The notes beneath the pieces are model-generated. The model was not told the origin of the DNA, did not search any database, and saw only the letters and a program-made list of their open reading frames with translations. 64,000 nucleotides of DNA, from the NCBI GenBank assembly GCA_964291285.2, contig OZ219786.1, positions 576,001 through 640,000 of the forward strand, written 5' to 3'. The position numbers and the translations under genes were made by a program. This DNA is from Alphaproteobacteria bacterium (GTDB lineage: Bacteria; Pseudomonadota; Alphaproteobacteria; Bin95). This document shows, one piece after another, positions 10,284 to 23,969 of this stretch (position 1 is its first letter; every line of letters starts with the position of its first letter).

Positions 10284-10437
10284 TTTTGCAGGGGTGACCG
10301 ATGAGGTGCGGAGTCCGACGTAGCTGAGCCGGCGAGTGCGCCGGTTATGGACCGGAACTCAATATACGAATCCGGAAGCCGGCCGGTGCTGCAGCAAATC
10401 GTTCCTGAAATTTATGTAATAATTCTCTATTCGTGGC

Positions 10438-10464
10438 TTGCATTTTCAGAAATTGTGATATGAT
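10438..10464 (+). promoter_or_regulatory. Putative sigma70 (extended -10) promoter of element copy 1
   Basis: TTGCAT-N15-TATGAT with TG two bases upstream of -10, in an AT-rich patch; conserved in copy 2 as TTGCAT-N15-TATAAT; spacer is short. Confidence 0.55.
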
Positions 10465-10470
10465 GGGTTC

Positions 10471-10718
10471 GAGGTAAGCGGCATCCGGAGCCGCTTCCCG
10501 CCCGCGCCGGCCCGGTGCGGAACGACCCCGATTCAGCCGACAGGCGAAGTGCGTCCTGCGCCTGCCCCGCGCACGCGCAATCAGGCGCGCGAACCGCGCC
10601 GGCGCCGACACCCGCCCGCGCCGGCACAGGCGCCCGCGCAGGATACGCGCGAATAGGGGTCGCTCCGATGCCGGGACGGTATGGCCATCGAACCGAAGCG
10701 GAATGTAAGGAGCCGTGC
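10471..10718 (+). ncRNA. Candidate structured leader RNA, copy 1
   Basis: Best-conserved block between the copies; nested complementarity (10518-10534 with 10651-10667; 10480-10491 with 10662-10672). Confidence 0.4.
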
Positions 10719-10874
10719 ATGACCTTTCCCGACCCGACCGTCGCCCTCACTACCCGCCGGGAAGCCTTCTGCCGCCACTACACAGCCTCGACCGGCTCCA
10801 GAGGACCGGCTTCTTCAACCCGCCCGGAGACACGGAGTTCGCCCCCGACCATGACAAAACATGACATTCCATGA
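10719..10874 (+). pseudogene. Deleted terminase-small-subunit-like ORF
   Basis: AAGGAG RBS; MTFPDPTVALTTRREAFCRHYTAS; about 97 nt missing relative to copy 2. Confidence 0.6.
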
Positions 10875-11016
10875 CACATCGGATGGGGGCGCTTTCCGAA
10901 GCACAGCCGTCACCCCGGCCCTGAGCCGGGGGCCAGCCCTGACTCTCGCGGCAGCCTCGGCGGTTCCACCCTCTTTCCACCGGCCGCGGCATCATCGCGA
11001 GCCATGGATGGACCCC

Positions 11017-11253
11017 GATGGTGTGGACGCCTCCTTCCGCCGGCATCGCAATGTGCCAGGGCAGCGGTGTCGAAACAGTGCTACGGGAAGGAGGCATCCA
11101 ACAAAGGAGGTTAGCCTCATCGGGACCGGCCTGTCGAAGAACAGCTTTCAGATGCACGGCGCGTATGCGAACGGTTCGGCGGCGTTCCGTCGCAAGCTGA
11201 CGCGGGGGAAGGTTCTGGCGTTTCTGTCGTCTCAGCCTCGTTGTACGATGGCG
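11017..11253 (+). mobile_element. IS110 family (IS1111-like) left end and transposase N-terminal relic
   Basis: ATGGTGTGGACGCC...CGGCATCGCAATGTGCCA end sequence; 'KEVSLIGTGLSKNSFQMHGA...FRRKLTRGKVLAFLSSQPRCTMA' matches the GIDLAK N-terminus, with start codon and first catalytic Asp lost. Confidence 0.8.
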
Positions 11254-11274
11254 GGCCCTCCAACGACCGTCCGT

Positions 11275-11925
11275 TCATCCGGAACGGCTCGCGCCCCGGA
11301 ACAGCGGATGGCCGAGGGCGGCTTCCAGATCGGCCAGCGCCTGCGCCTCGGTCTCGACCTTGATGGTCGCCATGCCCATGGCGCGGGCCGGCTTGAGATT
11401 GATGCCGAGATCGTCGAGGAAGACGCAGGCCGCCGGCTCCACGCCAAGGCGCTCGCAGGCGAGGCGGTAGAAGGCCGGCTCCGGCTTGCGAACCCCCACC
11501 TCGCGCGACTCGACCACCGCGTCGAACAGCGCCATCGCGTCTGCGATCTCGCGGGCCCCGGGGCCGTCCTCGCCCGGCGCGCGCATATTGTTGGTGAGGC
11601 AGGCGGTCCGGTAGCGGGCCGCGACCGCGCGCAGCGCCGCCACCATGCGCGGCCGCACCGGGCCCTGGATGAGGTCGAGGATTTCGCCGGCGTCCAGCCT
11701 GTAGCCGAGCGCCGCCGCCTCGGCCTCGAAGCGCCGGCGGAATTCGGCCCGGTCGATGTCGCTGCGTTCGAACAGCGCCCAGGCATTGCTGTCCGGGTTG
11801 CGGCTGTTGATACGCCGGACCGCGCCTTCAGGCAGGCCGTTGGCGCGCTCGTAGCGGGCGAAGGCGTCGAAGGGGCTTTCCGTCAGCACGCCGCCGAAAT
11901 CCCAGAGCACCGCCTCGACCGTCAC
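11275..11925 (-). CDS. HAD-IA family hydrolase
   Basis: 'AVLWDFGGVL', 'LTNN', 'RKPEP', 'FLDDLGINL'; GTG start overlaps upstream stop. Confidence 0.9.
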   Translation of the reverse strand: MTVEAVLWDFGGVLTESPFDAFARYERANGLPEGAVRRINSRNPDSNAWALFERSDIDRAEFRRRFEAEAAALGYRLDAGEILDLIQGPVRPRMVAALRAVAARYRTACLTNNMRAPGEDGPGAREIADAMALFDAVVESREVGVRKPEPAFYRLACERLGVEPAACVFLDDLGINLKPARAMGMATIKVETEAQALADLEAALGHPLFRGASRSG

Positions 11926-13031
11926 AACGCGCCTCCCTGGCAGCGGGCCGGGCTCAAAGCGGACTCTTCGAGGCCGAGGTCCCGGATTTCCTGCGGCAGA
12001 CCTTTGCCCGCCGCCAGCGCCGCCACCGTCATCCCCATCGCCGGCGCGGTCTGGATGCCGTAGCCGCCTTGACCCGCGCACCAGAAGAAGCCGGGAACAT
12101 CGGCATCGAAACCCGCCACCAGCGTCTTGTCGGCGACGAAGCTGCGCAAGCCCGCCCAGCGCCGCTCGATGCGGCGAATTTGGAAGACCGTCGCGCGCTC
12201 GATCCGGTCCACCGCCATCGCCACGTCGATCTCCTCCGGCTGCGCATCGCAGGGTGGCGAAGGCGTCTCGTCGGCGAGCGAACCCAGCACGCGGCCCGAT
12301 TCCGGCTTGAAGTAGAATTGCTCATCGACATCGACCGCCATCGGCCACGCGCCGGTTTCCGCCTCGAAGGTGAAGGCGGTGCGCCGCTTGGGCACGAGGC
12401 CGATGGGGGCCGCGCCGGCCAGCGCCGCCACCTCGTCGGCCCAGGCGCCGGCGGCGTTCACCACGATGCGCGCCTCGACCTCTTCCCCGCCCCGGAGCGC
12501 CACCCGCCAGCCGGCCGGTGTTTGCACAAGCGCTTCCACCTCCGCATTGCGCCGGAGCGGCACGCCGCTGAGGAAGCCCCGGTGCAGGGCGTGAATGTCG
12601 ATGTCCGAAGCCTCCGGCTCGAAGACGCCCCCGGCCACGTAGCCTGGCCGGAGCGCGGGTATCAGCCGGCAGACCTCGCCGCTGTCCAGCATCCGGATCT
12701 CCGGGACGAACCGCCGGCCGTCGCGGAAGGCGCCTTCCAGCGAGTCCGACTGGTCGGCGCGCCCGAACAGCACCAGGCCGCGGGGCGTCAGCAGCGGCAC
12801 GTCCGAGAACCCCTCGGGGGGCTTGTCGAAGAACGGCTCCGAGGCGACCGTCAACGCCCGGATCGCAGCATTGCCGTAGGCCTGCGTGTAGAGCGCCGCC
12901 GACCGGCCGGTGGTGTGGTAGCCCGGCTGGTCCTCGCGCTCCAGCAGCAGCACGTCGAAACGCCGGGCGAGGAAATGCGCGGCGGACGCCCCGGCCATGC
13001 CGGCGCCGATGACGACGATGTCAGGCATCAT
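11922..13031 (-). CDS. FAD-dependent oxidoreductase (DadA/D-amino acid oxidase family)
   Basis: 'IVVIGAGMAG', 'HTTGRSAA', 'VVNAAGAWAD', 'GQGGYGIQTAPA'. Confidence 0.92.
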   Translation of the reverse strand: MMPDIVVIGAGMAGASAAHFLARRFDVLLLEREDQPGYHTTGRSAALYTQAYGNAAIRALTVASEPFFDKPPEGFSDVPLLTPRGLVLFGRADQSDSLEGAFRDGRRFVPEIRMLDSGEVCRLIPALRPGYVAGGVFEPEASDIDIHALHRGFLSGVPLRRNAEVEALVQTPAGWRVALRGGEEVEARIVVNAAGAWADEVAALAGAAPIGLVPKRRTAFTFEAETGAWPMAVDVDEQFYFKPESGRVLGSLADETPSPPCDAQPEEIDVAMAVDRIERATVFQIRRIERRWAGLRSFVADKTLVAGFDADVPGFFWCAGQGGYGIQTAPAMGMTVAALAAGKGLPQEIRDLGLEESALSPARCQGGAL

Positions 13032-13650
13032 CTTCCTTTCCGGGCGCGTCGAGGCGCATGGCAACGCGCGGCACCCAGTTTCGGGGCAGGCCCTCCAGGG
13101 GCCCGCGAACGACCCGGAAGCCGGCCCGGCGGAACAGCGGCTCGGTGCCGAAAAATGCGTTGTCGGCGCCGGTGCGCGCCTCGCCGGCGCGGGGATAGGC
13201 CTCGACCGCCGGCGCGCCGCACTCGAAGGCGTATGCCGCCGCCGCCCGAATCAGGGCCACGGCGACGCCGCGCCCGCGGGCCGTCTTCCGCACGGTGACG
13301 CAGGGTATCGCCCAGACCGGGACCGCATCGACCGCCGGCGTCGCCCTGGAGGCGCAGACCCGGGCGAACGCCGGGCGCGGCGCGACGGCCGCCCACCCGA
13401 CCGCCTCCTCCCCTTCGAAGGCGACCAGCCCCGGCGCCGGGGCGGCCCGCGCAAGTCCGGTCATGGCGGCGCGGCGGCGCGGGCCCAGGGGCCCCGTGCC
13501 CGGCAAAGCCTCGAATTCCTTTGCCGACAGCCTCGGATACATGCACCAGCAGGTCCTGCCCCAGCTCCCCCGGAGGACGCTTCCGAGCGCATTCATCAGC
13601 GCCGGCTCCAGCGGACGGAAAGTCAGCGGCGGGCGGTCATCCTGCGGCAT
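13021..13650 (-). CDS. GNAT family N-acetyltransferase
   Basis: 'CWCMY', 'VRKTARGRGVAVALI', 'VEAYP', 'LFRRAGF'; start at MPQDD. Confidence 0.85.
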   Translation of the reverse strand: MPQDDRPPLTFRPLEPALMNALGSVLRGSWGRTCWCMYPRLSAKEFEALPGTGPLGPRRRAAMTGLARAAPAPGLVAFEGEEAVGWAAVAPRPAFARVCASRATPAVDAVPVWAIPCVTVRKTARGRGVAVALIRAAAAYAFECGAPAVEAYPRAGEARTGADNAFFGTEPLFRRAGFRVVRGPLEGLPRNWVPRVAMRLDAPGKEDDA

Positions 13651-13653
13651 TGA

Positions 13654-14799
<1,146 letters not shown>

Positions 14800-14812
14800 G
14801 GGAGCCACCTTT

Positions 14813-15679
14813 TTGCAGGAACAACGCGCAGGGCCGGAGGTCAAGGCCGAAACGCCGGTCCAGGCGACCCTGCGCCGGGCCGTGTTCGCCCTTCTCGTTA
14901 CCGTGTCCCTGGTCGCGCTGGTCGTCGGCAAGGCGGAAGTCTATGTCTTCGACTGGGTCAAGAGCGGTGTGGGAGATCTACTGGCGCCCGTTCTGCAGAC
15001 CGTGACCCTGCCAGTGCGGGCCGCTCGCGATATCGGCAGCAATCTCGGCCGGGTGGCGGCATTGACCGAAGAAAATGCCCGGCTCCGGGACGAGAATGCG
15101 CGCCTGCGCCAATGGCAGGCGCTCGCGCTGCGGTTGGATGGACAGAACCGCGAATTGCGCCGCCTGCTGCGTTTCGATCCGGGCGAGGAGGTTCACACGG
15201 TTGCTGCGCGGGTGATCGCCGACACAGGCGGCCTCTACGCCCGCAGCATGCTGATGGACGCCGGCAGCCGCCAGGGCGTTCGCGCGGACCAGGCGGTGAT
15301 CTCCGGCGAGGGACTGGTCGGACGGGTGGTGTCGGCAGGCGCGCGCAGTGCGCGGGTGCTGCTGATTACCGACCGGCGCTCGCATATTCCGGTGCTGGCG
15401 GGTCCGGACCGTGTTCATGCCATCCTTGTCGGCAATAACGGCGCCCGGCTCAATTTGCGTTTCCTGCCGCGGAATGCAGCTCTGGCAGCCGGAGATGTGA
15501 TCGTCACGTCCGGTCGCGGCGGGGTATTTCCTCCCGGCCTTCCCGTTGGCGATGTCAGCGCCGCCGCGCGCTCCGGCGGCGGCGTGGAAGTTGTGCCGCA
15601 TGTGGACTGGACGCGGCTGGAGTTCGTTCGGGTCATCGACCGGAGCGCGCCGGACGTCGCCGCGCTTGCCGAGGAATAG
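14813..15679 (+). CDS. mreC: Rod shape-determining protein MreC
   Basis: TM helix + coiled coil, 'GLVGRV', 'VTSGRGGVFPPGLPVG'; TTG start after GGGGAG is inferred. Confidence 0.92.
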   Translation: MQEQRAGPEVKAETPVQATLRRAVFALLVTVSLVALVVGKAEVYVFDWVKSGVGDLLAPVLQTVTLPVRAARDIGSNLGRVAALTEENARLRDENARLRQWQALALRLDGQNRELRRLLRFDPGEEVHTVAARVIADTGGLYARSMLMDAGSRQGVRADQAVISGEGLVGRVVSAGARSARVLLITDRRSHIPVLAGPDRVHAILVGNNGARLNLRFLPRNAALAAGDVIVTSGRGGVFPPGLPVGDVSAAARSGGGVEVVPHVDWTRLEFVRVIDRSAPDVAALAEE

Positions 15680-16177
15680 ATGCTGACGCATCTTGACCGG
15701 GCAGCGCGCGCCGCGGTTCCCGCAGCAAGCATTGTCGTGCTGCTGCTCATCTCGCTTGTGCCCTGGATCGGCGACCGCGCCGCGCCGGCCCTCGCCCTTG
15801 CGGCAGTGCACTACTGGGCCGGAAGGCGCCCGGACCTTGTGCCGGCGCCCTTCGTCTTTGCTGTCGGCCTTACGCATGACAGCGTCGCAGACGCGCCGTT
15901 CGGACTCATGGCGCTCGTCTATCTGTTCGTGCTTGGGGCTGCGCGCAGCCAGCGCTTTCTGGTCGTCGGCCAACCCTTCGTCGCCGGTTGGGCAGTATTC
16001 ACCGTCGTGGCGTGCGCGGCCAGTGCGATCGCGTGGATCGGCGCTTCCCTCTATTACGGCGCGGCGCTCTCGGTCGGCGCGCCCGCGGCCGTGCTCCTGC
16101 TCACCGTGCTCACCTTCCCTGCTGTCGCGGGGGCGCTGGCCGTTCTGGATTTCGCGGCGTTGAAGCGAAGCGCCTGA
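15680..16177 (+). CDS. mreD: Rod shape-determining protein MreD
   Basis: Hydrophobic, 'HYWAGRRPDL', position between mreC and mrdA. Confidence 0.85.
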   Translation: MLTHLDRAARAAVPAASIVVLLLISLVPWIGDRAAPALALAAVHYWAGRRPDLVPAPFVFAVGLTHDSVADAPFGLMALVYLFVLGAARSQRFLVVGQPFVAGWAVFTVVACAASAIAWIGASLYYGAALSVGAPAAVLLLTVLTFPAVAGALAVLDFAALKRSA

Positions 16178-17988
16178 TGACGGGCGTTCGCAGCAGGACC
16201 CAATTGATCCGCCGCCGCGCCCTGCTCGTCGGCGGCGTCCAGGTCGGCCTGATCGGGTTGCTGGCAGGCCGCCTGGTGCAACTGCAGGTGCTGGAAGGCG
16301 ACCGCTATTCGCGTCGCGCCGAGGACAATCGCACCGCCGAACGCCCGCTGGCTCCGGAGCGCGGCGAGATTCTGGACCGACGGGGCCGGCCGCTGGCCCG
16401 CAACCGGGAGACCTACCGCTTGCTGCTGGTCCCGGAAAAGGCGGGCCCGATCGATGTCGCGCTCGATGAAATCGGGCGCCTCGCGGCACTCGGCCCGACG
16501 GCGCGCGAGCGGGTTCGAAGAACAGTGCAAAAGCAGCCGGGCTTCGAGCCGGTCGTCGTCCTCGACGACATGTCATGGGAGGAAATGGCCCGTCTTTCGC
16601 TGGCAATTGCAGAACGCGAGGGCATTTTCACGAATGCCGCGCAGCGCCGGATCTATCCGCTCGGACCGGCGGCTGCCCACGCCATCGGCTATGTCGGCCG
16701 CGTGTCGCAGAAGGACCTGGAGCGGTCCGACGACGCCTCGCTGCTGCGTATGCCCGATTTCCGTATCGGGAAAACGGGCATCGAGCGCACCCAGGATGAA
16801 ACATTGCGGGGCGCGGCCGGTACACGCCTGATGGAGATTACCTCCACCGGCCGCCAGCGGCGGGAGTTGGGGCGGCAGGAAGGCCTGTCCGGCGAAACGC
16901 TTCGCCTCACGCTCGACGCCAAGCTCCAGCGATTTGCAGCCGGACTGTTCGGGGAGGAGACCGGCGCGGCCGTGTTGATGGATGTGCGGAGCGGCGGCCT
17001 GCTGGCCACCGTGTCGGCGCCCAGTTTCGACCCCGGCGCATTCCACGACGGAATCGCAGACCGGCAGGAGTGGCTGTCTCTCGCCGGCGACCCCCTGCAT
17101 CCGCTCAGCAATCGCGCCGTTTCCGGCCAGTATGCACCGGGATCGACCTTCAAGATTGTCGTCGCGCTGGCGGCGCTCGAAGCGGGGGTGGTGTCGGCGG
17201 AACAGTCCTTCTTCTGCAACGGCGTCCACGAGCTTGGCACCGGGCGGTTCCACTGCTGGCGCCGTGGCGGGCACGGGCATGTCGATCTGTTCAAAGCGCT
17301 CCAGCAGTCCTGCGACATCTACTTTTACGAGATCGCGCAGCGGACGGGCATCGACCGGATCGCGGCAATGGCGAGAAAGCTCGGTTTCGGGGCGGCGACC
17401 GGGATTGAACTTCCCGGAGAGCATAGCGGGCTCATTCCCACCAAGGCGTGGAAGCACGAGGCGCGCAACGAATCCTGGCAGGTCGGAGAGACGCTGCTCG
17501 CCGGAATCGGCCAAGGCTATGTGCTCGCCACGCCGATGCAGTTGGCGACCATGACCGCCCGGCTCGCCAATGGGGCCTATGCAGTCCTCCCCAGGCTGAT
17601 CGGCGGCGAGAACGCCCCCGAGCTCAAGATCGACAGGCGATTTCTGAGGGTTGTGCGCAAGGGTCTGGCCGCCGTCACCGGCTCGCGGCGGGGCACCGCC
17701 TGGAATGCCCGGATCGAGGAAGACGGGTTCGAGATGGCGGGCAAGACCGGCACCTCACAGGTCAGGCGCATCTCCAGGCTCGAGCGCCGGCTCGGCGTTC
17801 GCAAGAACGAGGACCTGCCGCGGGAACAGCGCGACCATGCGCTCTTCGTCGGCTACGCACCTGCCGACAAGCCGCGCTACGCTGCCGCCGTCGTCGTCGA
17901 GCATGGCGGCAGCGGGTCCAAGGCGGCCGCGCCCATTGCGCGCGACCTGCTGCTGGCCGCCCAGAAGGCGGAGACCGTCGCATCATGA
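16177..17988 (+). CDS. mrdA: Penicillin-binding protein 2
   Basis: SxxK (STFK), SxD (SCD), KTG; 'RGEILDRRG' dimerisation domain. Confidence 0.95.
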   Translation: MTGVRSRTQLIRRRALLVGGVQVGLIGLLAGRLVQLQVLEGDRYSRRAEDNRTAERPLAPERGEILDRRGRPLARNRETYRLLLVPEKAGPIDVALDEIGRLAALGPTARERVRRTVQKQPGFEPVVVLDDMSWEEMARLSLAIAEREGIFTNAAQRRIYPLGPAAAHAIGYVGRVSQKDLERSDDASLLRMPDFRIGKTGIERTQDETLRGAAGTRLMEITSTGRQRRELGRQEGLSGETLRLTLDAKLQRFAAGLFGEETGAAVLMDVRSGGLLATVSAPSFDPGAFHDGIADRQEWLSLAGDPLHPLSNRAVSGQYAPGSTFKIVVALAALEAGVVSAEQSFFCNGVHELGTGRFHCWRRGGHGHVDLFKALQQSCDIYFYEIAQRTGIDRIAAMARKLGFGAATGIELPGEHSGLIPTKAWKHEARNESWQVGETLLAGIGQGYVLATPMQLATMTARLANGAYAVLPRLIGGENAPELKIDRRFLRVVRKGLAAVTGSRRGTAWNARIEEDGFEMAGKTGTSQVRRISRLERRLGVRKNEDLPREQRDHALFVGYAPADKPRYAAAVVVEHGGSGSKAAAPIARDLLLAAQKAETVAS

Positions 17989-19160
17989 AGGCTTGGGAGG
18001 TGCGCCAGCCGGGCCTTGGAGTCGGCGGACTGCTGCTCCGGATAGACTGGGTGCTGGTCATTCTTCTGGCGCTCACGACCGCAGTCGGGTTCGCCATGCT
18101 CTATTCGGCCGCCGGGGGGAATATCCGGCCCTGGGCCGGCCCGCATGCCCTGCGTTTCGGCGCCGGCATGGTGGTCATGATGGCCATTGCGCTGATCGAC
18201 ATCCGCTTCTGGCTGCGTTGCGCCTATCCGATCTATGCCGCCTCCCTCCTGCTCGTCATCGGGGTGGAATTTCTGGGGGAGGTCGGCATGGGGGCCCAGC
18301 GCTGGCTGAAGCTCGGCCCGCTGTCGGTCCAGCCGTCCGAATTCATGAAGATCGCGTTGGTGCTGGCGCTCGCCCGCCACTTCCATGCCCTCGACGACAG
18401 GGAGGCGAACAACTGGCCCTGGCTGCTGCTGGCGTTGGCGCTGATTGCGGTCCCGGCCCTGTTGGTCGCGCGGCAACCGGATCTCGGGACGGCGGCCATG
18501 ATCGGGGCCGGCGGCATGGCCCTGCTTTTTCTGGGCGGCATCTCCTGGCGGCTGTTCGCGCTTTTCGGCATCGCGGCAGGGGCGCTGGTGCCGGCGGTCT
18601 GGTACGGGCTGAAAGACTATCAGCGCGACAGGGTGCTCACCTTCCTCGATCCCGGGCGCGACCTTACCGGCGCCGGCTACCACGGCTACCAGTCGAAAAT
18701 CGGCATCGGTTCGGGCGGCGAGTTCGGAAAGGGCTATCTGGAGGGCACGCAAAGCCATCTGGGCTTCCTGCCGGAAAGCCACACGGACTTCATTTTCGCC
18801 GTCATTTCCGAGGAATTCGGCCTTGCCGGCGGCCTCTTCGTCCTCGCGCTCTATCTGTCCGTCATGGGCTACGGTTTCGCCATCGGCTTCATGGCGCGGA
18901 ACGATTTCGCCCGGCTGCTCGCTTTCGGCGTCACCTTCACCTTCTTCCTGTTCGTGTTCGCCAATGTCGCCATGGTCGCCGGCCTGATCCCGGTGGTCGG
19001 CGTGCCGCTGCCGTTCATCTCCTACGGCGGCACGGCGATGCTGACGCTCCAGATCGGCTTCGGCCTCGTGCTCTCGGCCAAGGTTTACCGGGATGTCGAA
19101 ATGGCGGAGGAAGCCTCCGGCCGGCCGGCGGGGCCGGGGTCGATCGCCGCGATGCGCTGA
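17985..19160 (+). CDS. rodA: Rod shape-determining protein RodA
   Basis: 'GAQRW', 'QPSEFMK', 'QPDLGTA', 'FLPESHTDFIF', 'PLPFISYGG'. Confidence 0.95.
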   Translation: MKAWEVRQPGLGVGGLLLRIDWVLVILLALTTAVGFAMLYSAAGGNIRPWAGPHALRFGAGMVVMMAIALIDIRFWLRCAYPIYAASLLLVIGVEFLGEVGMGAQRWLKLGPLSVQPSEFMKIALVLALARHFHALDDREANNWPWLLLALALIAVPALLVARQPDLGTAAMIGAGGMALLFLGGISWRLFALFGIAAGALVPAVWYGLKDYQRDRVLTFLDPGRDLTGAGYHGYQSKIGIGSGGEFGKGYLEGTQSHLGFLPESHTDFIFAVISEEFGLAGGLFVLALYLSVMGYGFAIGFMARNDFARLLAFGVTFTFFLFVFANVAMVAGLIPVVGVPLPFISYGGTAMLTLQIGFGLVLSAKVYRDVEMAEEASGRPAGPGSIAAMR

Positions 19161-19621
19161 ACCATCTTCGGGCCTTCCACCCGGCCGTGCTCATAGGCCA
19201 GCACGACAAGGCGGCCGCCGACCGCCTGGAGCAGTTCGCCCGGCTGCAGAAGGAAGTCCGGATTGCGGGGACGCCCGAAGGCCTCCTGACCTCGGGCGAA
19301 TGTCTCGTAAAGCAGCAGGCCGCCCGGCGCGACGAGTGAAATCGCGGCGGCGAGCGTCGGGCGGTGCAGGTAGTTGACCACCACCACCGCCCCGAACCGC
19401 CGATCGGCGAAAGGCCAGGGGCTGCCGTCCTCGAGGTCCCACGCAAAGCCGCCCGGCAGCCGGGAGATATCCCTGTCCACCGCAAGCACCGGGTGGCCGC
19501 GGGCGGCGAAGAACCGCGTATGGCGGCCTTCGCCGGCGGCCAGGTCGAGCACGGGCGCGGCAGGCGGCACGAGATGGGCGAAACGCGCGATCCAGGCCGA
19601 GGCTGGCATCGGTCCCTTCAT
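19085..19621 (-). CDS. Class I SAM-dependent methyltransferase
   Basis: 'VLDLAAGEGRH', 'VVVVNYLHRP', 'LAPGG'-like 'VAPGGLLLYETF'. Confidence 0.85.
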   Translation of the reverse strand: MKGPMPASAWIARFAHLVPPAAPVLDLAAGEGRHTRFFAARGHPVLAVDRDISRLPGGFAWDLEDGSPWPFADRRFGAVVVVNYLHRPTLAAAISLVAPGGLLLYETFARGQEAFGRPRNPDFLLQPGELLQAVGGRLVVLAYEHGRVEGPKMVQRIAAIDPGPAGRPEASSAISTSR

Positions 19622-19638
19622 GGCACTATATGTAGCGC

Positions 19639-20061
19639 ATGATCGTTTACCGGCTCACCTGCAAGAACGAGCACGAGTTCGAGGTCTGGTTCCGCGACAG
19701 CGCCGCCTGCGACGCGCAGATCGCGGAGGGCAAGGTGATATGCCCGCATTGCGGAGACAGTTCGGCGCGCAAGAGCCTGATGACGCCCAATGTCGCGCCC
19801 AAGGGAACGGACAGCGCCGCCGACAAACTCTCGGCGCGCCGGGCCGTCATGATGCGGGAGCTCCGGGAACTGCGCCGCAAGGTCGAGGAAAACTGCGACT
19901 ATGTCGGTCCCCGCTTTGCGGAGGAAGCGCGCCGCATTCATTACGGCGAGGCCGACAGCCATGCCATCTACGGCGAAACGACGCCCGAGGAGGCCCGGGC
20001 GCTGACCGACGAAGGCATCGAGTTCGGGCGCATCCCCTGGGCGCCCAGGCTGGACAGCTAG
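19639..20061 (+). CDS. DUF1178 family protein
   Basis: 'MIVYRLTC..HEFEVWF...CPHCG...YVGPRFAEEARRIHYGE'. Confidence 0.9.
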   Translation: MIVYRLTCKNEHEFEVWFRDSAACDAQIAEGKVICPHCGDSSARKSLMTPNVAPKGTDSAADKLSARRAVMMRELRELRRKVEENCDYVGPRFAEEARRIHYGEADSHAIYGETTPEEARALTDEGIEFGRIPWAPRLDS

Positions 20062-20082
20062 GGCGGGCGGCCCGCCTTTTCT

Positions 20083-21420
20083 TCAGCGTCCCCCGACCGT
20101 CATGGCCTCAACCCGCAGGGTCGGCGCGTTCGCCGTGCCGCGGAATACCAGATCGTCGGCGGCGTCGAGGCCGAGCAGCATGTCGCGCAACTCCCCGGCT
20201 ATCGTGATCTCGCTCACCGGCTCGGCGAGCTTTCCGCCCCGAATCGCGAAACCCGCCGCGCCCTGGCTGTAGCGTCCGGCGACGAGATCGACGCCGTGCC
20301 CCATGAGCGCGGTCACGAACAGGCCGTTCTCGATCTCGCCGATCAGCTCTTCCGGCGAGAGGCGGCCCGGCTCGAGGTAGAGATTGGACGATGAGGGGCC
20401 GGGCGCGGACCCGGCGCTGCGGGAAGCGTGGCCGGTCGGCGGAAGGCCCAGCTGGCGGGCGGAGCGCAGGTCCAACAGCCATGAGCGGAGCACGCCGCCC
20501 TCGACCAGCGCACGGCGCCTGCAGGGCAGACCTTCGCCGTCGAACGGGCGCGAGCCGAGTCCCCGCCCGCGCCCCGGATCGTCGATCAGGTTCATGCCGT
20601 CCTTCAGCACCGCCTCGCCCATGGCGTCCTTGAGGAAGCTCGTGCCGCGCGCAACGGCGGCGCCGTTGATGGCGCCGGCAAGCGCGCCGACCAGCCCTCC
20701 GGCCAGGCGCTGCTCGAAGACCACCGGCATCACGGTCGTGTCGGGCTTGACGGGCCCCAGCCGCTTCACCGCGCGCTCGCCCGCGCTCCGGCCCACCGCC
20801 GCCGGCTCCGCAAGGTCCGACGCGTGGACGGCGCGGGACCAGTCATATCCGCTCTCCATCGCCGTGCCCTCGCCCGCCAGAACGGACACGGACAGCCCGC
20901 ATCCCGACCTCCGGTAGCCGCCCGCGAACCCGTTGCTGGAGACGAGCGCGACATGGGCCTCGCTGCGGCTGGCCCCGGCGCCCTCGGAATTGGTGACGCC
21001 CGCGACGTCGAGCGCCGCCGCCTCGGCTTCCAGGGCCTTTCCGACAAGGTCTTCCGAAGCCGGCCGGGCGTCGTCATAGAGGTCGAGTTCCGGCCATTCC
21101 TCCGCAAGGAGCGCCGGCTCCGCCAGCCCGGCATGGGGATCTTCAGGCGCGGCCCGCGCCATGGCGACCGCCCGCTCGACCAGCGCGGACGCCGTTTCCG
21201 CCTGCCGGTCGGCGGTCGCGACAATCGCCTGGCGGCGCCCGACCAGCACCCGCAGCCCGGTCTTGCGCAGCTCGGAGCGCTCCATATGCTCGATCTTGCC
21301 GAGCCGCACCGCCGCATCCAGCGAGCGGCTGTCGATATCGACGGCATCGGCCTCGTCGGCGCCCCGGGCGCGGGCTTCGCGCACAAGGTCGCCCAGGAAG
21401 TTCAGGACATCGTTTGCCAT
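20083..21420 (-). CDS. pmbA: TldD/PmbA family protein (PmbA/TldE)
   Basis: 'SRPFDGEG', 'YSQGAAGF', 'PVSEITIAG', 'PTLRVEAMTVGG'. Confidence 0.9.
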   Translation of the reverse strand: MANDVLNFLGDLVREARARGADEADAVDIDSRSLDAAVRLGKIEHMERSELRKTGLRVLVGRRQAIVATADRQAETASALVERAVAMARAAPEDPHAGLAEPALLAEEWPELDLYDDARPASEDLVGKALEAEAAALDVAGVTNSEGAGASRSEAHVALVSSNGFAGGYRRSGCGLSVSVLAGEGTAMESGYDWSRAVHASDLAEPAAVGRSAGERAVKRLGPVKPDTTVMPVVFEQRLAGGLVGALAGAINGAAVARGTSFLKDAMGEAVLKDGMNLIDDPGRGRGLGSRPFDGEGLPCRRRALVEGGVLRSWLLDLRSARQLGLPPTGHASRSAGSAPGPSSSNLYLEPGRLSPEELIGEIENGLFVTALMGHGVDLVAGRYSQGAAGFAIRGGKLAEPVSEITIAGELRDMLLGLDAADDLVFRGTANAPTLRVEAMTVGGR

Positions 21421-21507
21421 GGCGGTCCGAACATAGCCCACGGTGCGGCTCCCGTCTCGCCGCCGACATGTCCCGCACGGCGCGGGCGCGGCATATCGCA
21501 ACGCAAC

Positions 21508-21539
21508 AAAAAAGGGCCGCCCCCTTTCGGGAGCGGCCC
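21508..21539 (-). terminator. Intrinsic terminator of phasin gene
   Basis: GGGCCGC...GCGGCCC stem followed by a T-run on the minus strand. Confidence 0.8.
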
Positions 21540-21564
21540 GGCGCGAAGGGGAGGAACTACGCGC

Positions 21565-22020
21565 CTATGATTTCGCGGGCGCGGCCTTCTCCGCGGGCTT
21601 CGCCGGCGGGACGACCATCGCGGCCGTCTCGTCCATGGCCTCGCGAACGCGCTTGTCGATCAGGCCGAACACCTCGCGGCCGGTTTTGGCCGACATGTCC
21701 GCAAGTTCGCCGGCGCCCGCAACCGCCGATTCCCAGGCGCCTCTGGCGAATGCCGCGCTGCGCTCCGCCTTGTCCTCGAAGCTCGCATCGCCGAAGAACA
21801 GGTTCATGTTGGCGGCGGAGGCCTCGACCGCCTCGCGCGCCAGCTCGCCCTGCCGGCGCATGAAGGCGCCTGCGCCCTCGAACGCCGTCTGGCCGGCGGC
21901 AGTCATGGCCTCGACATTCTTGCGGTGCAGCGCCATGGCGCCCTCGGCGTCGAAGGCCGGGATCCTGAAATCGGCCATGAACCGGGCCGGATCGAAGTCG
22001 GCGAAAGGCATCTTGTACAT
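21565..22020 (-). CDS. Phasin family protein
   Basis: 'LHRKNVEAMTAAGQTAFEG...RRQGE...AFARGAWE...ELADM' amphipathic pattern; PhaR-like boxes upstream. Confidence 0.8.
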   Translation of the reverse strand: MYKMPFADFDPARFMADFRIPAFDAEGAMALHRKNVEAMTAAGQTAFEGAGAFMRRQGELAREAVEASAANMNLFFGDASFEDKAERSAAFARGAWESAVAGAGELADMSAKTGREVFGLIDKRVREAMDETAAMVVPPAKPAEKAAPAKS

Positions 22021-22083
22021 CGGTCTCGTGGTCTCCGTTCCAGTCTCGCGAGCCGCCTGCCGTAGAGGCGTGCGACTGTTGTC

Positions 22084-22144
22084 TCGCAACGCAATATGAT
22101 TATGCTGCGATGCAGCGTCAAGTCTTTTTTTGTGCGCCGCACAA
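22084..22144 (-). promoter_or_regulatory. Phasin sigma70 promoter with PhaR-like operators
   Basis: TTGACG-N17-CATATT (22121-22093); palindromes GCTGCGATGCAGC and TTGTGCGCCGCACAA. Confidence 0.65.
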
Positions 22145-22149
22145 ATTTT

Positions 22150-22707
22150 TTAGCAGCGCCGCCCTTCCAGCATGGGCGCCCAGCGCTTCAGGGCCTTGTC
22201 GAGGCTGGCCATGGTGCGGCCGAGATCCTCGCTGTCGTCCTGCAGCCAGACCCGCATGACGGACAGGTGGATGCCGGCCAGCAGCTTTACCCTCAGGAGA
22301 TCGAAGGGCCTCCGCGCCGGCGCGCCGGCGGCTTCCAGCATCCAGGCCATGGACCGGGCGAGCGCCGGCGCCAGCGGCGCGCCGGACAACGGGTCGCGCC
22401 GAAGATCGCGCCAGTACGCTTCGATAACCGCCCGATGCGGCTTGAGCGCGTCATAACGGCGCATCAACAGGTCGAAGAGCCGGTCGCGGAACGATTCGTC
22501 CTCGGCCCCGGCATCGGTTTCCGACAACACCGCCGCGTCGATGCGCGCGACCGCCGCTCTCATGACCGCACCCTTCGACGGGAAGTGGCGATAGACGTCC
22601 GCGAGCCCGCATCCGGCATGCGCGGCAATATCGGAGAGCGTCGCGTGGCGCCAGCCGCGTTCGGCGGCCACCGCGAGCGCCGCGTCGAGAATGGTATCGG
22701 CATCCAT
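22150..22707 (-). CDS. TetR/AcrR family transcriptional regulator
   Basis: 'ILDAALAVAAERGW...LSDIAAHAG...VYRHFPSK'. Confidence 0.9.
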   Translation of the reverse strand: MDADTILDAALAVAAERGWRHATLSDIAAHAGCGLADVYRHFPSKGAVMRAAVARIDAAVLSETDAGAEDESFRDRLFDLLMRRYDALKPHRAVIEAYWRDLRRDPLSGAPLAPALARSMAWMLEAAGAPARRPFDLLRVKLLAGIHLSVMRVWLQDDSEDLGRTMASLDKALKRWAPMLEGRRC

Positions 22708-22768
22708 GACATATCCTCCTTCAGGCCCCAATATGGGGCGCAGCAGCGGCCAAGGGGAGGGCGGGGCC

Positions 22769-23164
22769 ATGAGTTTTCATATCCGTCATCTGGACCATGT
22801 CGTGCTCCGGGTCCGCGACATGGACGCGGCAATAGCCTTCTACACCGGCGTGCTCGGCTGCCGGGAGGAGCGGCGGCTGGAGGAAATCGGCCTCGTGCAA
22901 CTGCGCGCCGGCGCCAGCCTGATCGACCTCGTGCCGGGCGAGCCGGACGCCTCCGGCGCCAATATGGACCACTTCGCGGTCCGTATTGCGCCCTTCGAGG
23001 AAGCAAGCCTCCGCGCCTGGCTGGCGGAGCACGGCATCGAGACGGAAGCGGCGCTCCCGCGCTACGGCGCCGAAGGCACCGGCCCGTCGATCTATATCCG
23101 CGACCCGGACGGCAACACCGTCGAGCTGAAGGGGCCGCCCACGGGCCTGGGCACTGCTGCATAG
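22769..23164 (+). CDS. VOC (glyoxalase) family protein
   Basis: 'LDHVVLRVRDM...FYTGVLG', 'YIRDPDGNTVELK'. Confidence 0.9.
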   Translation: MSFHIRHLDHVVLRVRDMDAAIAFYTGVLGCREERRLEEIGLVQLRAGASLIDLVPGEPDASGANMDHFAVRIAPFEEASLRAWLAEHGIETEAALPRYGAEGTGPSIYIRDPDGNTVELKGPPTGLGTAA

Positions 23165-23215
23165 GGCCCCTGCCCCTGTCTCGACCCGGCCCCGCCGCGC
23201 TCCGCGCCCCGCCTG

Positions 23216-23336
23216 CCCCCGCGAAGGCGGGGGTCGCCCCGGCCCTGAGCCCATCCATGGCCCGCCATGCTGCCGCGGCCGGTGGAAAGAGGGTGGAACC
23301 GCCGAGGCTGCCGCGAGAGTCAGGGCCGGGGTGACG
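23216..23336. repeat. REP-like hairpins
   Basis: CCCCCGC-GAAG-GCGGGGG (23216-23233) and inverted pair GTCGCCCCGGCCCTGA ... TCAGGGCCGGGGTGAC. Confidence 0.65.
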
Positions 23337-23969
23337 GCTGTGCTTCGGAAAGCGCCCCCTTCCGATGTGTCATGGAATGTCATGGAATGTCATGTTTTGC
23401 ATGGTCGGGGGCGAACTCCGTGTCTCCGGGCCCGTCCGGCCGCCGGGGCGCATTGAAGGGTCCGGCCCTCTGGAGCCAGTCGAGGCTGTCCCGGCGGCGC
23501 TGCTCGATGTTCTCCACGATCCAGGGCCGCTCCAGGAGCGCGCACCCTGTCTGCCTTGCGGCGTGTGCGGCATTGCCGGAGGCGGTGTAGTGGCAGCAGA
23601 AGGCCTCCTGGCGGGTGGAGAGGGCGACGGTCGGGTCGAGAAAGGGCATGGCGGCTCCTTCATTCCGTTTCGGTTCGACGGCCATGCCGCCCTGGCATCG
23701 GAGCGACCCTTATTCGCGCGTATCCTGCGCGGGCGCCTGTGCCGGCGCGGGCGGGTGTCGGCGCCGGCGCGGTTCGCGCGCCTGATTGCCCGCGCGCGAG
23801 GCAGGCGCAGGACGCACCTCACCTGTCGGCTGAATCGGGGTCGTTCCGCACCGGGCCGGCGCGGGCGGGAAGCGGCTCCGGATGCCTCTTCCCTCGCACC
23901 CATTATACCACTATTTTCTCAGATGCAAGCCCTGAACAGAGAAATATTGCTTAATTTTTAGGAACAATT
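23232..23969 (-). repeat. Dispersed element, copy 2 (more complete)
   Basis: Reverse complement of 10397-11016 with extra internal sequence; promoter TTGCAT (23928-23923) / TATAAT (23907-23902). Confidence 0.92.
23380..23649 (-). CDS. Terminase small subunit-like HTH protein (89 aa, probably internally deleted)
   Basis: AAGGAG RBS; 'LSTRQEAFCCHYTASGNAAHAARQTGCALLERPWIVENI' resembles TerS N-terminus LTxKQxxFCxxY...NAxxAAxxAGY...LLxxPxI. Confidence 0.6.
   Translation of the reverse strand: MPFLDPTVALSTRQEAFCCHYTASGNAAHAARQTGCALLERPWIVENIEQRRRDSLDWLQRAGPFNAPRRPDGPGDTEFAPDHAKHDIP

Follow-up and report, generated by a model that had tools for sequence, protein, structure and literature searches.

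What kind of element sets a phage-type DNA-binding domain between housekeeping genes, behind a long leader and ahead of a row of short repeats, and does so twice in one stretch of DNA? The stretch comprises positions 576,001 to 640,000 of contig OZ219786.1 in GenBank assembly GCA_964291285.2 (Alphaproteobacteria bacterium), and its 64,000 nucleotides are called the window below. The two units in question, copy A and copy B, each consist of an AT-rich promoter module, a GC-rich leader, a single small open reading frame (ORF) and an array of CATGACA heptamers. The original prediction, made from the sequence of the window, took them for either a non-autonomous mobile element or a module of RNA plus helix-turn-helix (HTH) protein. 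The family and its parts are borne out, whereas mobility can be read from the dispersal of the copies only. Our preferred reading, to which we give a probability of about one half, takes the units for selfish repeat DNA that recombines, with a terminase-derived protein that binds the phased heptamers sequence-specifically.

The window copies and their genome-wide family

A search of the genome that contains the window (G000 in the coordinates below; five contigs, 6,125,366 bp, 68% G+C) with an nhmmer profile of promoter plus leader returned 111 matches. They reduce to 102 distinct loci, spread over all five contigs with a density of 7-19 per Mb. The genome-wide family that had been predicted from two copies is therefore present. 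The heptamer CATGACA occurs 901 times, against about 316 occurrences expected from base composition, and forms 121 clusters. Since 103 of these clusters lie downstream of a leader on the same strand, mostly 60-900 nt away, leader and array are the two ends of one unit. Within the arrays the heptamers recur with a 10-bp phase, often in a layout of two, a spacer and three more. Seventy-five units can be paired from leader to array, with sizes of 318-1427 bp. The units are intergenic, none of the 75 being spanned by an ORF in a crude gene call based on GC3. The gene downstream is co-oriented with the unit in 43 of the 75, with no marked bias.

The full-length form is found in ten units of about 1.33 kb, each encoding a protein of 329 amino acids; one such gene is at G000:C2:1364044-1365033. 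Sister units have the common leader and the 3' CATGACA decamers around unrelated ORFs. One sister type encodes an acidic protein of 218 amino acids that starts MTATDPRP, near-intact in four units and deleted in 13; another, in 13 units, is an ORF of about 41 codons starting MPK(T/M)Q. No recognizable ORF remains in 27 of the 75 paired units, 21 units are deleted forms, and several carry frameshifts. The 218-residue protein has 155 relatives in the protein collection and a confident structural model (pLDDT 82); it belongs to no Pfam family, and a fold search with its model gave nothing below an E-value of 2. Searches of the ESM Atlas with this protein and with the tail of the 329-residue protein gave best scores of 0.81-0.83, which is chance level. 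BLASTP finds no similarity between the 329-residue and 218-residue types. The ORFs of all types nevertheless share a terminus, xHD(K/I)(T/S/P) before the stop codon, because every ORF runs into the decamers. Leader subfamilies follow ORF type, with about 75% identity between types, and for this reason an integron-like exchange of cassettes was ruled out. A megablast search of a plasmid collection with the full unit found no match. At G000:C3:1311900-1314864 a leader and a CATGACA array stand 2.6 kb apart around two ORFs, which, reading them by eye, we take to be a DNA methyltransferase-HNH-like protein (400 aa) and a transposase-like protein (339 aa).

The two window copies have the following parts.

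10397-10877, plus strand: copy A, whole unit, colinear with copy B
10397-10470, plus strand: copy A, AT-rich promoter module, with TTGCAT at 10438-10443 and the candidate extended -10 element TGATATGAT at 10456-10464; predicted transcription start near 10471
10471-10718, plus strand: copy A, GC-rich leader of about 250 nt, supported by nhmmer and covariance-model matches, alignments and pair counts
10719-10874, plus strand: copy A, decayed ORF of 51 aa, MTFPDPTVALTTRREAFCRHYTAS...KHDIP and stop
10850-10877, plus strand: copy A, three phased CATGACAnnn decamers (starts 10850, 10860 and 10870) with a sharp 3' end and the stop codon inside
23969-23367, minus strand: copy B, whole unit, colinear with copy A
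23896-23969, minus strand: copy B, AT-rich promoter module, with TTGCAT at 23928-23923 and the candidate extended -10 element TGGTATAAT at 23910-23902; predicted transcription start near 23895
23650-23895, minus strand: copy B, putatively structured leader of about 245 nt, with a ribosome-binding site (RBS) AAGGAG at 23660-23655 and a fold z-score of -2.9
23380-23649, minus strand: copy B, ORF in an 89-aa short form, MPFLDPTVALSTRQEAFCCHYTAS...KHDIP and stop
23367-23403, minus strand: copy B, three intact decamers (23394-23367) and one degenerate, forming the 3' end of the unit

In a pairwise alignment the two copies are colinear from AAT(C/T)GTTCC onward, the shared boundary that had been claimed for them. 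In blastn, copy B matches copy A with 89% identity over 393 nt (E-value 1e-145) and 78% over a further 258 nt, values that exclude chance similarity. The 5' edge is fuzzy, with weak similarity reaching about 25 nt further upstream. Relative to copy B, copy A lacks 97 nt and another 18 nt of the ORF and has an 18-nt insertion in the block downstream. The conserved core within its leader reads ...GCAATCAGGCGCGCGAACCGCGCCGGCGC...GATACGCGCG..., and its RBS, again AAGGAG, is at 10707-10712; in copy B the leader covariance model matches at window positions 23682-23840 (G000:C2:599682-599840). Both ORFs start M(T/P)F(P/L)DPTVAL..., and the second of three decamers supplies the stop codon. The ORF of copy A keeps the first 24 residues of the HTH, followed by a deletion and a change of frame, before the KHDIP terminus. 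That of copy B, which groups with short-form relatives of 89-99 aa, has a gap of nine residues in the region of the recognition helix and a short tail ahead of the same terminus. Both window copies are thus degenerate, internally deleted members of the family.

The order promoter, leader, AAGGAG, ORF and CATGACA repeats stands as first described; the REP-like hairpin that had been placed last in each unit does not belong to it. The units were thought to end at 11016 and 23232; in fact the last CATGACA(C) closes each unit, at 10877 in copy A and 23367 in copy B. What follows is a separate dispersed repeat:

10878-11016, plus strand: REP-like block beside copy A, an independent dispersed repeat outside the unit
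23232-23366, minus strand: REP-like block beside copy B, of the same independent family

Parts of this block (...GGGGGCGCTTTCCGAAGCACAGCCGTCACCCCGGCC...) match more than 20 other loci of the genome by blastn, it also occurs alone, and it stands 3' of only four of the 75 paired units. The housekeeping surroundings were described correctly: copy A lies downstream of a class II ribonucleotide reductase gene, and copy B between genes for a gamma-glutamyltranspeptidase and a glyoxalase-fold protein. A suspected resemblance of window positions 11116-11286 to the N-terminus of an IS110 transposase was dropped because it has no Pfam support. At gathering thresholds, the Rfam content of the whole window is a single tRNA.

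Terminase-like protein, leader RNA and promoter

The full-length master copy that had been anticipated is supplied by the 1.33-kb units. Residues 11-70 of their 329-residue product match Pfam family Terminase_2 (PF03592) with an E-value of 1.2e-10 and 42.6 bits, against a cut-off of 26.1, and the protein matches PHROG 51, "terminase small subunit", with an E-value of 4.4e-12. Terminase_2 is the only Pfam hit, with no transposase or recombinase domain, and an NCBIfam scan of the same protein found nothing. At the domain level, therefore, the full-length protein is a member of Terminase_2. All 12 matches to PF03592 above cut-off in the genome are units of the family. The window ORFs themselves, which had been described as terminase-small-subunit-like, fall short of this cut-off: the ORF of copy B reaches 15.3 bits (E-value 0.033), and that of copy A is not among the 12.

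A profile built from 55 family members finds, in the Protein Data Bank, the DNA-binding domains of SF6/SPP1-like G1P proteins (4zc3, 2cmp and 3zqp/3zqq) with E-values of 4e-6 to 2e-5. The AlphaFold model of the full-length protein has a mean pLDDT of 64.5; values are 80-94 for residues 10-100, and the model is confident over 10-107. Its predicted fold begins with a three-helix HTH, continues with long helices over residues 52-107, and then passes through a disordered linker to further helices of moderate confidence. Foldseek superimposes the HTH on 4zc3 with a target-normalized TM-score of 0.82, an rmsd of 0.8 A and a probability of 1.00, while the E-value for the whole model is 0.1. Identity to 4zc3 and 2cmp is 40% over 50 residues, at an rmsd of 0.8-1.4 A. 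By domain profile and fold, the N-terminus is a small-terminase DNA-binding domain of the SPP1/SF6 G1P type.

The likeness to phage proteins stops soon after this domain. Phage small terminases align only to residues 7-129 or thereabouts, and none of 25 phage records covers at least 80% of the protein or supplies a counterpart for the C-terminal tail of about 200 residues. This tail is acidic, ends in a patch of lysine and arginine, and is conserved, with invariant or near-invariant residues up to position 269 among 55 sequences. Nei-Gojobori dN/dS ratios are 0.19 over residues 1-125 and 0.33-0.40 over the tail; they were computed from nine copies within the genome, and comparison with 11 copies from other genomes has the same outcome. 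Because of the domain match, the conserved tail and the low dN/dS, the full-length gene is taken as real and under purifying selection.

For the leader, 59 of 62 copies less than 92% identical to one another were aligned in MAFFT together with both window copies, giving 61 rows. The consensus fold has pairs in 83% of cells; controls in which the 3' partners are shifted by 1-3 columns fall to 30-48%. Covariation scores 0.124 in the real alignment, 0.033-0.061 in the shifted controls and 0.094 in 500 shuffles, none of which attains 0.124. In the first hairpin, five of ten pairs have changed on both sides, as in one that is GC in 35 copies and AU in 14. The core helices are near-invariant, and the only changes there are from C to U opposite G, which would keep the pairing only in RNA of this strand. 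RNAalifold run on the raw 61-sequence alignment finds only 12 pairs, and our covariance model R1, which carries those 12, acts mostly as a sequence model for that reason. From the aligned sequences, a structured leader RNA is moderately supported. An E-value search of Rfam release 15 with copy B gave three matches at chance level, far below gathering scores.

Upstream of the leader core, the motif TGnTAnnnT is present at a distance of 115-131 nt in 45 of 74 loci, and anywhere in a 95-nt window in 47 of 74; shuffled sequences give a mean of 9.8 loci and a maximum of 17. The spacer between TTGCAT and the putative extended -10 element is 15 nt in both window copies. The promoter thus looks to be of the extended -10 type. 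A scan of the two window units for intrinsic terminators found none.

Distribution, turnover and insertions

Searches with the full unit find the family in 13 of 16 genus mates and no copy in the other three. In more distant genomes only traces at E-values near 1e-3 are seen, in 3 of 24. The covariance model of the leader core has from 35 to at least 79 matches per genome in the same 13 genomes and none in 20 genomes of two sister genera. By these searches the family appears restricted to this genus of uncultured Alphaproteobacteria. Close relatives occur in runs labelled sponge metagenome, and pieces from one of them (X4) are about 86-98% identical to the window.

The protein reaches further than the leader. 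Among 80 related loci in public metagenome-assembled genomes (MAGs), the leader precedes the ORF in 59, seven have no upstream sequence, and 14 are leaderless. The leaderless relatives belong to other lineages, show 44-61% protein identity, and in several cases are multicopy in their own genome. Their promoter is similar, with TTGCAT and a GTTC-N7-GAAC inverted repeat, their 5' untranslated region (UTR) is short, and (C/G)ATGAC(A/G) decamers are retained at the end of the ORF. Because these distant relatives keep the decamers there, protein and heptamer array are seen as an old, co-conserved pair, to which the long leader is a genus-specific addition. In distant relatives (loci L079-L094) the GTTC-N7-GAAC repeat overlies the -10 region, about 60-100 nt upstream of the ORF, and a TGTTC motif is conserved in the promoter modules of this genus; these motifs may be an operator.

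Nine full copies within the genome agree best over the ORF, with a mean pairwise identity of 95-96%. The leader follows at 90% and the terminal 30 nt at 88%; the promoter module reaches 60% and the flanks 37%, and promoter variants are shuffled relative to ORFs. At a site that G000 shares with two other genomes, G007 and G014, the flanks are 94-95% identical, and the unit itself has diverged to 74-75% in the promoter, 83-84% in the leader and, in G007, 79% in the ORF. Copies within a genome are therefore homogenized or replaced faster than their surroundings diverge, a pattern that suggests ongoing gene conversion or re-insertion. The units also break assemblies, as repeats do.

Individual sites vary in what they carry. 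The site of copy B holds a unit in G006 as well; in other genomes synteny is lost. At locus L001 a unit is present in G007 and G014, and G006 has a different, inverted-repeat element. At locus L004, G006 carries an unrelated coding segment of 0.8 kb, and at locus L005 the site is occupied in G006. On contig C140 of G006, the closest relative (about 2620-3140 of L172), at the site of a full unit of G000, lies a different element of about 0.5 kb with terminal inverted repeats of about 38 nt that include GTCATG and TTGTTCC. A genome-wide search for paralogous empty sites produced no clean case for any of the 75 units.

Y1 transposases (PF01797) have no match in the genome, while six of 14 control genomes are positive; Y2 HUH transposases have no match either, the controls being likewise silent. 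Pfam scans of the 329-residue and 218-residue ORFs, and NCBIfam, show no transposase family in the units. The idea that GTTC at the 5' edge is a rolling-circle target was rejected, as a second subfamily has TTGTTC inside the promoter module and no Y2 transposase was found.

Recognized insertion sequences (IS) do enter the units. In four units an IS110-family element, which encodes a 343-aa transposase with DEDD_Tnp_IS110 and Transposase_20 domains, lies antisense at one position of the leader, and leader profile positions 96-155 are present on both sides of the insertion. This suggests that the IS110-family element targets the repeat site-specifically. Another IS, whose 599-aa transposase is of the DDE_Tnp_1 type, is inserted in four leaders, each time at profile position 262. 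The locations are as follows.

G000:C1:640031-641416: IS110-family insertion in a leader
G000:C1:858805-860176: IS110-family insertion in a leader
G000:C2:876658-878093: IS110-family insertion in a leader
G000:C3:1276382-1277812: IS110-family insertion in a leader
G000:C1:257679, C3:195926, C3:941053 and C4:199594: DDE_Tnp_1 insertions, one locus with a tandem partial copy

An IS3-family element with HTH_Tnp_1 and rve ORFs, running from G000:C2:1256602 onward (L197), contains GGAGTGGGCC in its left inverted repeat. In 11 of the 75 units GGAGTGGGCC starts exactly 7 nt past the last CATGACA, a fixed offset, and 16 of its 42 occurrences in the genome are within 45 nt of a CATGACA.

Explanations and comparison with known systems

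How could such a family work and persist? In the reading that we prefer, each unit would be a complete small transcription unit: an extended -10 promoter leads into a structured leader RNA of about 250 nt, which is followed by an RBS, one small ORF and a CATGACA array that both holds the stop codon and marks the 3' end. Much as a small terminase recognizes pac repeats, the 329-residue protein would bind the heptamers, phased at 10 bp, that close its own gene, and in trans it would also bind the roughly 120 arrays around the genome. Pac recognition is the known role of the small-terminase domain; we infer heptamer binding because of that role, the 10-bp phasing and the fact that protein and repeats are conserved together across genera. 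The family would persist as selfish DNA, its copies being duplicated and then made alike through recombination among them or through gene conversion. The window copies and the other short units would be non-autonomous relics that keep promoter, RNA and array. Spread and homogenization by recombination between copies is the best-supported part of this scheme. The layout of the units, their number and distribution, the protein fold, purifying selection, RNA covariation and homogenization within the genome are observed; binding, transcription and the mode of spread are presumed.

Several results weigh against it. Neither the full copy nor copy B has an arm at its 5' end that would pair with the 3' end as a terminal inverted repeat, and neither a target duplication nor a clean empty site was seen at the orthologous sites compared; mobility is therefore presumed from dispersal. 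Pfam and fold searches reveal no catalytic domain in any of the three kinds of ORF. For the RNA, two of five whole-structure measures fall within the shuffles, namely the number of pairs changed on both sides (359 of 500) and of further pair types (187 of 500), and the structure counts come from a MAFFT alignment of related copies that takes no account of structure. A scan for canonical promoters found nothing in copies A and B, which is explained by the 15-nt spacer. Contigs from an RNA library show no excess in depth ratio over DNA contigs at the two units: the summed depth of the unit relative to neighbouring bins is about 15-22x in RNA library X20 and about 26-37x in DNA runs X1, X2 and X4, ratios that, since public runs were compared as contigs only, say nothing on expression, starts or ends. 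Some copies stand at orthologous sites across species, which is compatible with long-lived host genes, and purifying selection and retained promoter features would be expected of a host function no less than of a selfish element.

These last points lead to a host-domesticated multigene family, in which about 100 paralogous units, each a regulatory RNA or 5' UTR with a small DNA-binding or acidic protein, would serve, for example, regulation or nucleoid organization, the short units being small-RNA genes. Constraint on the ORFs, promoter features kept despite drift to 60% identity, covariation in the leader RNA, the intergenic position of all 75 units and the missing hallmarks of mobility would all be accommodated. 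However, genuine host genes would sit uneasily with the state of many units, which are decayed as counted above, with zero copies in three genus mates, and with the lack of orientation bias toward downstream genes; copies at orthologous sites that diverge beyond their flanks, while those within a genome are homogenized, follow the pattern of a repeat and not of conserved single genes, as does the breaking of assemblies. We regard a host family as unlikely on balance. It is rather unlikely, too, that the units are a new kind of self-propagating DNA, with the terminase-derived DNA binder as sole protein, in which protein, heptamer array and leader RNA would together drive copying or conversion without known transposase chemistry and the arrays might serve as dispersed pac-like entry points for packaging.

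Packaging could also be the whole purpose, if a helper phage, a satellite or a particle like a gene transfer agent started headful packaging at some 100 dispersed initiation modules and chromosomal DNA were transduced from them. The SPP1/SF6 G1P-type domain, its co-conservation with the repeats across genera, and phased heptamers resembling pac sites (in the SPP1 and P1 layouts as generally described) would suit this idea. The genome has a single match to a large-terminase nuclease, at G000:C2:89785-91362, and none to Terminase_1 or Terminase_6N (PF03354, PF03237). This match belongs to a compact, head-only, phage-like cluster among housekeeping genes at G000:C2:85300-91400 (L174 6833-12866), with large terminase, HK97-type capsid, S78 prohead protease and portal genes; beside it no small terminase or tail gene is recognizable. 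Yet no unit adjoins the large terminase gene, the nearest being about 12.6 kb away, and the two are not co-distributed, large terminase being found in three of 16 genus mates and the repeat family in 13. Multiplication within the genome, the structured leader and the unrelated sister ORFs would be left unexplained, and the C-terminal 200 residues have no counterpart in the 25 phage records. We hold this explanation to be distinctly improbable. A terminase-type domain away from any phage could instead point to anti-phage decoys, small-terminase mimics and decoy pac arrays that misdirect or titrate the packaging of incoming phage; some 100 copies with mostly decayed ORFs are so unlike known defence systems that this seems far-fetched. 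The tamest possibility, a local duplication, a mis-assembly or a fragment of a described IS, miniature inverted-repeat transposable element (MITE) or prophage, was allowed for in the original prediction, and nothing beyond the initial view of two copies speaks for it. Loci on all five contigs, further copies in 13 other genomes and in independent runs, and uniformly negative Rfam, transposase-family and inverted-repeat tests, which also uphold the early impression that the architecture matches no described element, leave it practically no weight.

If the preferred reading is right, a high-copy chromosomal repeat with its own promoter and a large conserved RNA has acquired a DNA-recognition domain of phage origin, an architecture absent from the catalogues of IS, MITE, REP, satellite and Rfam families that were tested. 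The leader provides a new RNA motif with covariation, represented by many hundreds of natural sequence versions in the 13 genomes. Genome structure in an abundant group of uncultured symbionts is shaped by the family, and as a preferred landing site for at least three IS families its units have a bearing on genome rearrangement.

Of known systems, the closest at the protein level is the SPP1/SF6 G1P small terminase (PF03592), whose DNA-binding domain the HTH of the unit protein matches. The predicted long helices after the HTH recall the oligomerization region of G1P, and short phased direct repeats in or near the gene recall pac sites as commonly laid out. The differences are that the unit has no adjacent large terminase or phage module, at least ten gene copies per genome, an acidic tail of about 200 residues, and its own promoter and 250-nt leader, the latter putatively structured. 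In agreement with the original prediction, Pfam, repeat-arm and family searches give no transposase, terminal inverted repeat or adjoining large terminase. Satellites of the SaPI/PICI type, as generally described, likewise have a small-terminase homologue and a presumed recognition site away from any phage. They are single islands, in contrast to a unit of 1.3 kb with one ORF and about 100 copies; between leader and array that single ORF leaves no integrase or replication module such as PICI, SaPI and P4-like satellites have, att sites not having been searched for. IS110 with its bridge RNA, IS200/IS605, and IscB with its omega RNA share, as generally described, a promoter and a structured RNA of about 200 nt 5' of a single ORF. 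The unit ORF is not a DEDD, TnpB or IscB protein, however, and its leader has no Rfam match; a genuine IS110-family element inserts into the leader as a separate entity.

Among repeats, some modular intergenic families carry promoters, and the Correia elements (CREE) of Neisseria, RIME of rhizobia and BIME/REP of enterobacteria resemble the units in being, as commonly portrayed, dispersed in about 100 copies, intergenic, mosaic with deletion variants, and potentially transcribed. The units differ from them in a size of 0.3-1.4 kb, the lack of inverted-repeat ends, the presence of coding master copies and a large RNA with apparent covariation; from REP/REPIN repeats with their RAYT transposase they differ in size (318-1427 bp) and in living in a genome without a Y1/RAYT gene (PF01797). 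The unit thus fails the defining tests of a phage packaging module, an IS, a MITE, a REP/RAYT system, a satellite and an Rfam family, and the titles and abstract openings returned by a full-text literature search describe no such element. The best reading is a previously undescribed family of dispersed modular intergenic repeats.

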